This document shows positions 1 to 31,527 of a stretch of 31,527 nucleotides of DNA, in pieces. The notes beneath the pieces are model-generated. The model ran no database searches and was not told the origin of the DNA. It saw nothing but the letters and a program-made list of their open reading frames with translations. Origin of the DNA: a virus; the IMG/VR virus record IMGVR_UViG_3300025540_000004; one strand, written 5' to 3'. The stretch's first letter is position 1; every line of letters begins with the position of its first letter. Position numbers and translations under genes: made by a program.

Positions 1-127
1 ACCTTGCATGACAGCGATCGTCCAGCCCAAGCCTATTTCCACTGCCTATACGCTGGCCTCATTAAGGGCGTGCTTTAGCGTTTACCTATTCCGCCACTAC
101 CTCGTTTGCAACGTCATGGCAATGACC
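1..127. repeat. Terminal direct repeat, copy A. It is identical to 31401-31527 and is read as a circularisation or assembly overlap.
   Basis: I compared bases 1-127 with 31401-31527 by eye and they match exactly. Both copies sit at the extreme ends of the window. Confidence 0.9.
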
Positions 128-296
128 TGAATGGTTTTCCACGCCATTCGCATGTATTTCGGTGCGGCTCCCCGTTATACTGGATCGTGGCACGCTCTCG
201 CTCCGTTGATAAAAGACAGCTAGAGATTGACTTTTAAGCCAATCAACATGGCCAAGAGGGGGAATGTTAGGAAGGTGTCTTTACCTCATGACCATG

Positions 297-326
297 TTGA
301 CGGGCTCAAACCCGCCATGGTACAAT
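297..326 (+). promoter_or_regulatory. Plus-strand sigma-A-like promoter.
   Basis: The -35 is TTGACG (297-302). An 18-nt spacer follows. The extended -10 is TGgTACAAT (318-326). Confidence 0.5.
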
Positions 327-351
327 TTATTTGTTCAGAATTTGTTTACCT

Positions 352-390
352 GCGATAGTTGTTTGCCGACGACTATCGCTTTTGCTTTTT
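352..390 (+). terminator. Plus-strand intrinsic terminator.
   Basis: An 8-bp stem pairs gcgatagt (352-359) with actatcgc (372-379) around a 12-nt loop. It is followed by ttttgcttttt. On the minus strand no U-tract follows the stem. Confidence 0.55.
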
Positions 391-1794: not shown

Positions 1795-1823
1795 ATTATA
1801 ACTTGCATTTTGTGCAATGTCAA
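1795..1823 (-). promoter_or_regulatory. Leftward early (lytic) promoter.
   Basis: On the minus strand the -35 is TTGACA (1823-1818), the spacer is 17 nt and the -10 is TATAAT (1800-1795). Both hexamers match the consensus perfectly. Confidence 0.8.
1803..1817. promoter_or_regulatory. Operator O2, TTGCAttttgTGCAA.
   Basis: Perfect half-sites. It lies within the 17-nt spacer of the leftward promoter. Confidence 0.65.
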
Positions 1824-6540: not shown

Positions 6541-6787
6541 CTCCCTTCGAGTTAAAAAGCGTTTTTATTTGCTCATCATGTCTTGTTGTTTTTTCTTTTA
6601 ATAAATCAATTTCAGCCTCATGTAGCTCCAATTGCTTGTCAGTCGTAATTTTAAAATCTTTTAAAGTGTTGTTTAGATTGTCGATTGACAACTGTAATGG
6701 ACTGATGACAATTTTTTTAAATAAAAAAATAACAATACCGCCTAAAAATGACAGTATCGTTATAAAGCTAACTATTTGTTGTAACAT
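6533..6787 (-). CDS. Lysis-cassette membrane protein with an N-terminal TM segment and a coiled coil. It occupies the position of XhlA.
   Basis: The ATG at 6787 has the SD GGAGGTG upstream. The TM segment is IVSFITILSFLGGIVIFLF. The gene overlaps the holin start. Confidence 0.65.
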   Translation of the reverse strand: MLQQIVSFITILSFLGGIVIFLFKKIVISPLQLSIDNLNNTLKDFKITTDKQLELHEAEIDLLKEKTTRHDEQIKTLFNSKGGV

Positions 6788-6799
6788 ATGATCACCTCC

Positions 6800-6834
6800 T
6801 AAATAAAAAGTGTCCATACATTGTGGACACTTTT
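6800..6834 (-). terminator. Intrinsic terminator between the tail fibre gene and the lysis cassette.
   Basis: The stem pairs aaaagtgtcca (6806-6816) with tggacactttt (6824-6834). On the minus strand it is followed by TATTT. Confidence 0.7.
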
Positions 6835-31027: not shown

Positions 31028-31354
31028 TCAATCTAAATAAGTTTTTAATAACTCAACTAAAAGTTTGTTTTGCTTTTCTAATTTTTTCATCCTTTTGTAG
31101 TTAAACCGATATCCATCAAAACGTTCTTCAATTTTTCTTAATTCGTTTTGGTAATATTCGGTTAATGCTCTAATTGACGATTTTTTAACAGTATCAACTT
31201 TCACTGGTCCAACAAAGCCTCTAGTACCGGTTAATAAGTCGATACCTATATATCCATCATCTTTTTTTAAATTCATGGCTTTGTTTTGATTCCAGTACAC
31301 AATCCCAATTTCTCCTTCATATTCAACTAATTCACCGACTTCATAAGTGTTCAC
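31028..31354 (-). CDS. Hypothetical protein of 108 aa. It is the first gene after the GC-rich island.
   Basis: The start is GTG at 31354, with the SD AAGGGGTG upstream. An in-frame TAG lies 18 nt upstream, so the ORF cannot extend further. Confidence 0.65.
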   Translation of the reverse strand: MNTYEVGELVEYEGEIGIVYWNQNKAMNLKKDDGYIGIDLLTGTRGFVGPVKVDTVKKSSIRALTEYYQNELRKIEERFDGYRFNYKRMKKLEKQNKLLVELLKTYLD

Positions 31355-31400
31355 ATTTTCACCCCTTTCCTAAGTGGTAATGAGGTAGGCAAGGATTTGC

Positions 31401-31527
31401 ACCTTGCATGACAGCGATCGTCCAGCCCAAGCCTATTTCCACTGCCTATACGCTGGCCTCATTAAGGGCGTGCTTTAGCGTTTACCTATTCCGCCACTAC
31501 CTCGTTTGCAACGTCATGGCAATGACC
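31401..31527. repeat. Terminal direct repeat, copy B.
   Basis: Exact 127-nt match to bases 1-127. Confidence 0.9.

Follow-up and report, generated by a model that had tools for sequence, protein, structure and literature searches.

The minus strand of the window, the whole analysed stretch of 31,527 nucleotides of viral DNA (IMG/VR record IMGVR_UViG_3300025540_000004), carries a tRNA-Leu-shaped RNA without an anticodon arm, and the helix that closes this RNA domain is its acceptor stem. With high confidence the element can be assigned to a family of tRNA-like RNAs rather than to the gene-specific riboswitches. The preferred reading, which is given about two chances in three, is that 31503-31381 constitutes the gene for a non-decoding, tRNA-Leu-derived RNA that would be excised, provided with CCA and active in trans via the sequence it carries as an insert.

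Architecture and gene setting of the element

The window represents a small temperate siphophage of a Bacillus-like host. Genes for a YqaJ exonuclease, RecT and a large serine recombinase were found, and nearly all genes of the window are located on the minus strand. The early leftward promoter is the likely source of the element-bearing transcript; no minus-strand terminator was found between this promoter and the element. For the product of the first gene downstream of the element, neither a Pfam nor a PHROG family could be identified, and its GTG start was aligned to the ATG of a homologue in the related locus L001. The coordinates of all features are collected in Table 1.

Positions 1-127 of the window are an exact repeat of 31401-31527, and the domain is therefore contiguous at the window's end, as the sequence-only reading had pointed out; the part of the element at 31401-31503 is found again as 1-103. 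The terminal repeat is presumably the overlap left by assemblers on circles, and the window would then be a circular contig. Within the GC-rich stretch that precedes the downstream gene, the element occupies the last 123-128 nt.

Table 1. Coordinates of the tRNA-like element, its parts and the neighbouring features of the window; genes are listed in minus-strand order.
Feature	Position	Strand	Remarks
Early leftward promoter	1795..1823	-	consensus TTGACA-17-TATAAT; CI-like and Cro-like regulator genes on either side
Cro-like gene		-	follows the promoter
Regulator gene	1294-770	-
ORF	818-483	-
Gene of 35-aa membrane peptide	480-373	-
GC-rich ORF-free stretch, ~390 nt	372 to 1, then 31400 to 31381	-
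GC-rich ORF-free island upstream of the element	107..372	-	continues into 31507-31527
Whole tRNA-Leu-like, anticodon-less RNA, 123 nt	31381..31503	-	G1 at 31503, discriminator A at 31381
Acceptor stem, 5' strand GAGGUAG	31497..31503	-	7/7 paired with 31382-31388
U8-G9 and D arm	31478..31496	-	D stem 31492-31494 with 31478-31480
70-nt insert ('cargo')	31408..31477	-	replaces anticodon and variable arms
T arm, 6-bp stem GCAAGG/CCUUGC, 7-nt loop UGCAAAU	31389..31407	-
Acceptor stem, 3' strand CUACCUC	31382..31388	-	followed by discriminator A 31381, then UU
Linker UU-ACCACUU, SD AGGAAAGGGGUG and spacer	31355..31380	-	before the GTG
First downstream gene, 108 aa	31028..31354	-	GTG start at 31354

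All bases quoted in the sequence-only reading were present at their positions, and the genes as well as the orientation of the family assign the RNA to the minus strand. The closing helix of 10 bp described there was retained in part. Its seven Watson-Crick pairs (31497-31503 with 31382-31388) stand, while the outer three do not: on the minus strand these are a C.A mismatch (31504/31381) and two A-U pairs formed by chance. The outer pairs are lacking in the close relative L012, and in 163 family copies the pairing outside the 7-bp stem is above the control level at one position alone, the first one outward (60% vs 41%). The hairpin noticed at 31389-31407 is real and represents the T arm, while the D arm had been overlooked. 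The latter consists of GCG, the loop GAAUAGGUAAA and CGC, and the loop holds A14, A15, G18 and G19. In the family, U8-G9 is followed by the motif GGCGGAAUAGGUA(G/A)ACGC, to which the window shows an exact 20-mer match. The formerly proposed pairing of 67-70 with 92-95 competes with this D stem (78-80/92-94 in the copy at the window start), which is backed by compensatory changes. Two further suggested pairings, 12-16/51-55 and 22-26/52-56, both fall inside the insert.

The insert ends at its 3' side with a CAU conserved in the family and the next G (31407) opens the T stem, so that CAUG and the T arm are found at 31389-31410. Position 55, in the T loop, is a G, and the acceptor and T stems stack to 13 bp, compared with 12 bp in tRNA. 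The 3' trailer is AUU, and CCA is not encoded in the element. Folding of the minus strand gave -43 kcal/mol (z = -2.1) and recovered the acceptor, D and T helices, with element positions 58-65 paired to 87-94 in the MFE fold in place of the suggested insert pairings; the plus strand gave -32 kcal/mol (z = -0.4). The modest z-score of -2.1 and the stack of 13 bp count against the preferred reading.

The family of tRNA-like RNAs

Copies of the element were pooled from IMG/VR, giving 165 distinct elements of 75-284 nt. The D-arm 20-mer matched at least 115 IMG/VR contigs exactly, and the D-arm-anchored set comprised 117 copies among the matches listed. For 97 of these 117, among the matches listed, a T arm was situated 34-219 nt downstream, which corresponds to the length of the family insert, and at a fixed offset past the T arm followed 7 nt of which at least six were complementary to the 7 nt before the D arm. 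By our own calculation, an acceptor match of at least 6/7 is expected by chance at about 1.3% of candidate sites, and the closing helix is therefore far beyond chance. Among the matches listed, the 97 copies carry 55 different acceptor sequences. The covariation check that the sequence-only reading had suggested thus found the closing helix conserved, with many compensatory changes.

For 73 distinct copies with a 6-bp T stem, each of the acceptor pairs 1-6 was seen as all four Watson-Crick types and pair 7 was always G-C; the six T-stem pairs of the same copies were 100% canonical, with pair 6 fixed as G-C and several types seen at each of the other five. An independent search anchored on the T arm recovered the same D arm in nearly every case. 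In this second set, D-stem pair 2 was C-G in 64 copies, U-A in 11 and mismatched in one, while at pair 1 the G-C was replaced by A-U in four copies and by C-G in two. The U8-G9 dinucleotide was present in 76/76 copies and a U two bases before the T stem in 74/76. The T loop TGCAAAT was found in 158/165 copies, a discriminator A in 104/165 and a U at position 74 in 89/165; CCA is encoded in 2/165 only. Clustering of the inserts of 166 distinct elements resulted in 140 clusters, 126 of them singletons. The acceptor, D and T stems all covary, and an almost invariant frame encloses a hypervariable insert. The element shows all features of the family, namely the acceptor stem, U8-G9 with the D arm, CAUG with the T arm, and a variable insert, without CCA.

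Standard annotation tools do not recognize these RNAs. ARAGORN called nothing in the window, and for the 117 excerpts only one call overlapped the element, two others being neighbouring tRNA genes. A scan of the whole window with Rfam 15 at gathering score gave no match to the element, nor was there a match at E<=10 for both window ends and the contiguous L012 copy. When 16 related loci were scanned at gathering score, the only overlap was with a group I intron in L116 that encloses a copy. No description of the family was found in literature on sequence motifs, phage tRNA mimics and SPP1. Together the copies form a very large family that lacks annotation and is spread over phages of Bacillus, Enterococcus, Listeria and their relatives.

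The tRNA most similar in sequence is the class II tRNA-Leu, and the D arm of the element shares 17/19 positions with the one in the tRNA-Leu(UAA) annotated for Enterococcus phage EFDG1. The 7-bp acceptor stem, U8-G9, A14, A15, G18G19, the CAUG before the T stem and the discriminator A are shared with tRNA-Leu, as is the absence of an encoded CCA, which many Firmicute tRNA genes show. Unlike tRNA-Leu, the element has neither an anticodon arm nor a recognizable variable arm and carries an unrelated 70-nt insert instead; its T loop is UGCAAAU (G55) in place of UUCxAxx, and there are 6 bp in its T stem. The element is unable to decode and is missed by tRNA finders. The UGC T loop occurred in 0/20 real tRNA-Leu genes with a readable T loop on the same contigs, which marks G55 and the sixth T-stem pair as derived features of the family.

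The similarity to tRNA-Leu raises the question whether the element could be a true decoding tRNA whose anticodon arm is unusual or interrupted by an intron, or else a tRNA-Leu pseudogene in decay or what is left of an integration site. Besides the shared D arm and CAUG, the tRNA-Ile call on the family-like copy L041 speaks for such an origin. However, no anticodon stem-loop can be drawn, ARAGORN and the Rfam tRNA model (RF00005) fail, the latter even at E<=10, and the insert matches no Rfam family, introns included. Near-perfect conservation and covariation speak against decay, and this explanation is considered highly improbable. An attP or integration remnant was rejected as a candidate; the element retains the two halves of a tRNA, and the gene of the serine recombinase is situated about 3 kb away.

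Several copies deviate from the common layout. In a subfamily made up of L030, L031, L050, L065, L077, L086, L092 and L116, an insertion of 60-110 nt is located in the T loop between UG and CAAAU; it begins with ACUAUAC(A/G)(A/G)GUAAC and ends with C(U/C)(U/C)GU, and the acceptor 3' strand that follows is normal. For L124, L125, L151, L159, L171, L174, L186, L193, L194, L224 and L233, the D arm stops after GGCGGAAUAGAC and the inserts are long, which may reflect a D-loop insertion or a different architecture. The group I intron of L116 (3621-4074, minus strand) matches the Rfam model with 79.5 bits, and in the alignment an intron hairpin, probably P5, accommodates the whole tRNA-Leu-like element in its terminal loop, inserted over about 200 nt at model position 80/81.

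Relatives, genomic contexts and the downstream gene

The element of the close relative L012 is 122/123 identical to that of the window, while the aligned stretch of 898 bp is about 80% identical overall. The homology breaks off exactly at the discriminator (31381), beyond which L012 has a different gene. Metatranscriptome and metagenome contigs likewise change their context exactly at 31381/31382; in the metatranscriptome contigs, the element is present in assembled sequence from RNA libraries. The insert is 69-70/70 identical in L012, L234, L236 and L237, despite differences in acceptor stem, flanks and host. L234, from a prophage of Bacillus sp. IITD106 (contig JAIAZY010000029.1), combines the same insert with a compensated acceptor (ATGGTAG/CTGCCAT) and a different upstream sequence. 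This copy lacks the GC-rich island as well, so the tRNA-like part can be regarded as a module bounded by the acceptor stem. Taken together, the comparisons suggest strong purifying selection on the element and its modularity.

The island upstream of the element is a separate conserved structured segment outside the tRNA-like module. It is conserved in L012, L054, L236 and L237, with a few compensatory pairs, and gave no Rfam family match and no BLAST match in the phage collection. Two hairpins could be drawn in it: the long one (about 299 to 222) varies at its tip and contains compensatory pairs, and the other (150 to 128) has two such pairs. In the region 297-480, an RNA of about 55 nt could start from a plus-strand promoter at 297-326, which has an extended -10, and end at a terminator at 352-379. 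This putative RNA is antisense to the 3' end of the gene of the 35-aa membrane peptide (480-373, minus strand); the layout of promoter, terminator and peptide is reminiscent of type I toxin-antitoxin pairs, with a hairpin that does not vary among the relatives.

The sequence-only reading had proposed a riboswitch or leader, in which a P1 helix would control the ORF at 31354 in response to a ligand. What stands of this proposal is the helix-closed, multi-helix RNA domain; the control of the ORF is not supported. The helix 3' arm is indeed followed by ACCACTT, the SD AGGAAAGGGGTG and the GTG start as described, the helix-closed junction ends about 10 nt before the SD, and tRNA-like shapes are known for some riboswitches, such as yjdF (PMC9142559). 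Against it, the first downstream gene differs even among close relatives: the five relatives with this insert have five different ones, two of them homologues of the second and third genes of the window phage. The homology breaks between element and SD, and the linker sequence is not conserved among relatives with the same element. The alternative linker pairing (31373-31377 with 39-43) is not conserved either, the linker being different in L012, L234, L236 and L237. In L001, a 71%-identical homologue of the 108-aa gene is located directly behind a small peptide gene, and neither the island nor the element is present. No terminator or sequestering helix was found, the domain is a tRNA-Leu-like frame and not an aptamer with an expression platform, and family copies are situated in tRNA arrays and many other contexts. 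Because the downstream genes differ, the homology with L012 breaks, the IITD106 copy is modular, L001 lacks the element and the family contexts are diverse, the element does not serve the ORF at 31354 as its specific leader, and a riboswitch is very unlikely. In L001 (2395-2502), the ORF of the small hydrophobic peptide overlaps the start of the 108-aa homologue, with nothing non-coding between them.

More weight, though still little, can be given to a role restricted to cis, in which the tRNA shape would serve only as a signal for cutting by RNase P and RNase Z or for protection of the 5' end of the downstream message, the excised RNA being functionless. In all five insert-sharing relatives the element stands in front of a series of small genes that leads to the YqaJ/RecT module. 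The distance from the element to the next start of an ORF of 45 aa or more is 18-28 nt in four of them and 143 nt in L236. An SD-led ORF start lies at most 40 nt downstream in about 15/76 family copies (~20%), and some copies are located between an ArpU/RinA-like activator and a terminase gene. These positions would suit mere punctuation of the message. On the other hand, pure punctuation needs no conservation of the kind seen for the 70-nt insert where flanks and acceptor stems differ, and the inserts of the family are long, structured and diverse. Many copies also belong to tRNA clusters or are not followed by a gene of the same direction: of 139 scorable cases, 60 have their nearest downstream ORF on the opposite strand, and for many copies there is no ORF within 200 nt or the neighbour is on the opposite strand. 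This explanation is considered unlikely. Conservation of the insert across otherwise different phages argues that the excised RNA itself matters, beyond the cut, as the preferred reading of a trans-acting RNA proposes.

Unannotated copies were identified in phages of Enterococcus (Schiekvirus), Brochothrix, Lactobacillus, Leuconostoc, Weissella and Bacillus, and 70/189 copies (37%) have a canonical tRNA or tmRNA gene at a distance of 500 nt or less, in the manner of an RNA gene. The copy of EFDG1 is located within a tRNA cluster and directly adjoins the phage tmRNA. This tmRNA (KP339049.1, L118:2145-2700), recognized by Rfam with 140 bits, is itself without annotation and abuts a family member of 205 nt. 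In SPP1, the copy lies unannotated between genes 9 and 11, with its first acceptor base at about 6646 of X97918.2, and the word tRNA is absent from the text of the 2018 re-annotation paper of this phage (PMC6316719). Just downstream of the SPP1 copy (X97918.2, about 6766-6812; L117:1614-1660), a second T-arm-like hairpin was observed with the loop UUCAAUU and the flanks ACGGAC and GUCCGU, which may be a tRNA minihelix. Clustering of the ORFs located up to 3 kb from 189 copies revealed no constant partner protein; even the most widespread cluster reached 20/179 loci (~11%), many of these 20 being near-duplicates.

Kinship with known RNAs and proposed role

While class II tRNA-Leu is the closest relative in sequence, the closest one in architecture is the tRNA-like domain of tmRNA, and in biology the T4 RNAs RNAC and RNAD. 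The element fails the tests for a canonical tRNA, a tmRNA and a riboswitch. Like tmRNA (SsrA), it has a tRNA-like acceptor/T frame around a large non-tRNA insert, and it is in principle chargeable without an anticodon. Unlike tmRNA, it possesses a full Leu-type D stem, and its pair 3:70 is G-C, so that the alanine mark G3:U70 is absent. The Rfam tmRNA model (RF00023) gave no match to the element in the same scan that detected the EFDG1 tmRNA. In mitochondrial tRNA punctuation and t-elements, as in viral tRNA-like structures, the tRNA shape directs RNase P and RNase Z or works by mimicry, and decoding is not its purpose. Unlike the element, t-elements and viral tRNA-like structures have no conserved cargo domain, and those of plant viruses are situated at genome 3' ends and contain anticodon-like parts. 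RNAC and RNAD of T4 are encoded next to the tRNA genes of the phage and mature together with these tRNAs. These stable RNAs (species 1 and 2) are described in PMC9697503 as small, phage-encoded and of still unknown function. Unlike the phages that carry the element, T4 infects a Gram-negative host, and the likeness to RNAC and RNAD is one of description.

Most leucine identity features are present in the element, i.e. A73, A14, A15, an equivalent of U48, G18G19, C56 and U54/A58, while position 55 is G and not U. A minimal tRNA-Leu remains chargeable when both arms are missing. In E. coli, leucylation is sensitive to the G18:U55 contact (PMC9976931); the G55 of the element speaks against the preferred reading. 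As 37% of copies lack A73, charging is no universal requirement; for the element itself, charging by LeuRS is possible. With a structure predictor that has no validated verdict for protein-RNA pairs, the element scored 0.62 on B. subtilis LeuRS in three concordant runs, compared with 0.00 for controls with shuffled RNA or an unrelated protein and a weak and inconsistent 0.16 on SerRS. The predicted LeuRS contacts involve the acceptor, the D arm, the region of position 48 and the T loop. The docking score can be taken as a hint.

According to the preferred reading, the element would be transcribed within the early leftward operon. RNase P is known to recognize the acceptor/T stack, and in Bacillus RNase Z typically acts on tRNA frames in which CCA is not encoded and the discriminator is followed by U. 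Host RNase P would thus recognize the tRNA-like frame and cut the 5' end, and RNase Z would cut the 3' end as on CCA-less precursors, helped by the U after the discriminator. After addition of CCA, a stable RNA of about 123-126 nt would accumulate. The same cuts would split the early mRNA, and the downstream message would start at about 31380, 8-9 nt before the SD. The tRNA frame would be the handle by which the RNA is processed, kept stable or docked, possibly also on LeuRS, and the conserved insert would carry the phage-specific activity. Excision by tRNA-processing enzymes, taken by itself, is an evenly balanced proposition; N-1 is able to pair with N73 in 60% of copies, and this pairing may interfere with RNase P. 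Confidence in any particular trans function is low. The possibility that the insert acts as an antisense RNA on its own phage genome was rejected: the longest complementarity found elsewhere in the genome is 10 nt, which equals the mode of shuffled controls and is no better than chance.

More speculatively, the family could represent an undescribed class of RNA in which a LeuRS-recognizable and possibly leucylated tRNA-Leu frame serves as a universal chassis for phage-specific, hypervariable cargo. The cargo might then be a decoy, sensor or regulator directed at the host machinery that binds or cleaves tRNA, and excision might punctuate the early operon before the recombination module. This extended view is only tentatively put forward.

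Hundreds of Firmicutes phages carry an RNA of this family, including the model phage SPP1 and the therapeutic-type Enterococcus phage EFDG1, and the family is absent from Rfam 15 and from GenBank annotation. During annotation, such elements should not be read as riboswitches or ordinary intergenic leaders. The combination of a near-invariant tRNA-Leu frame with phage-specific cargo suggests a general strategy, in which the host tRNA machinery is used for a non-decoding purpose, and SPP1 together with B. subtilis makes this question directly testable.
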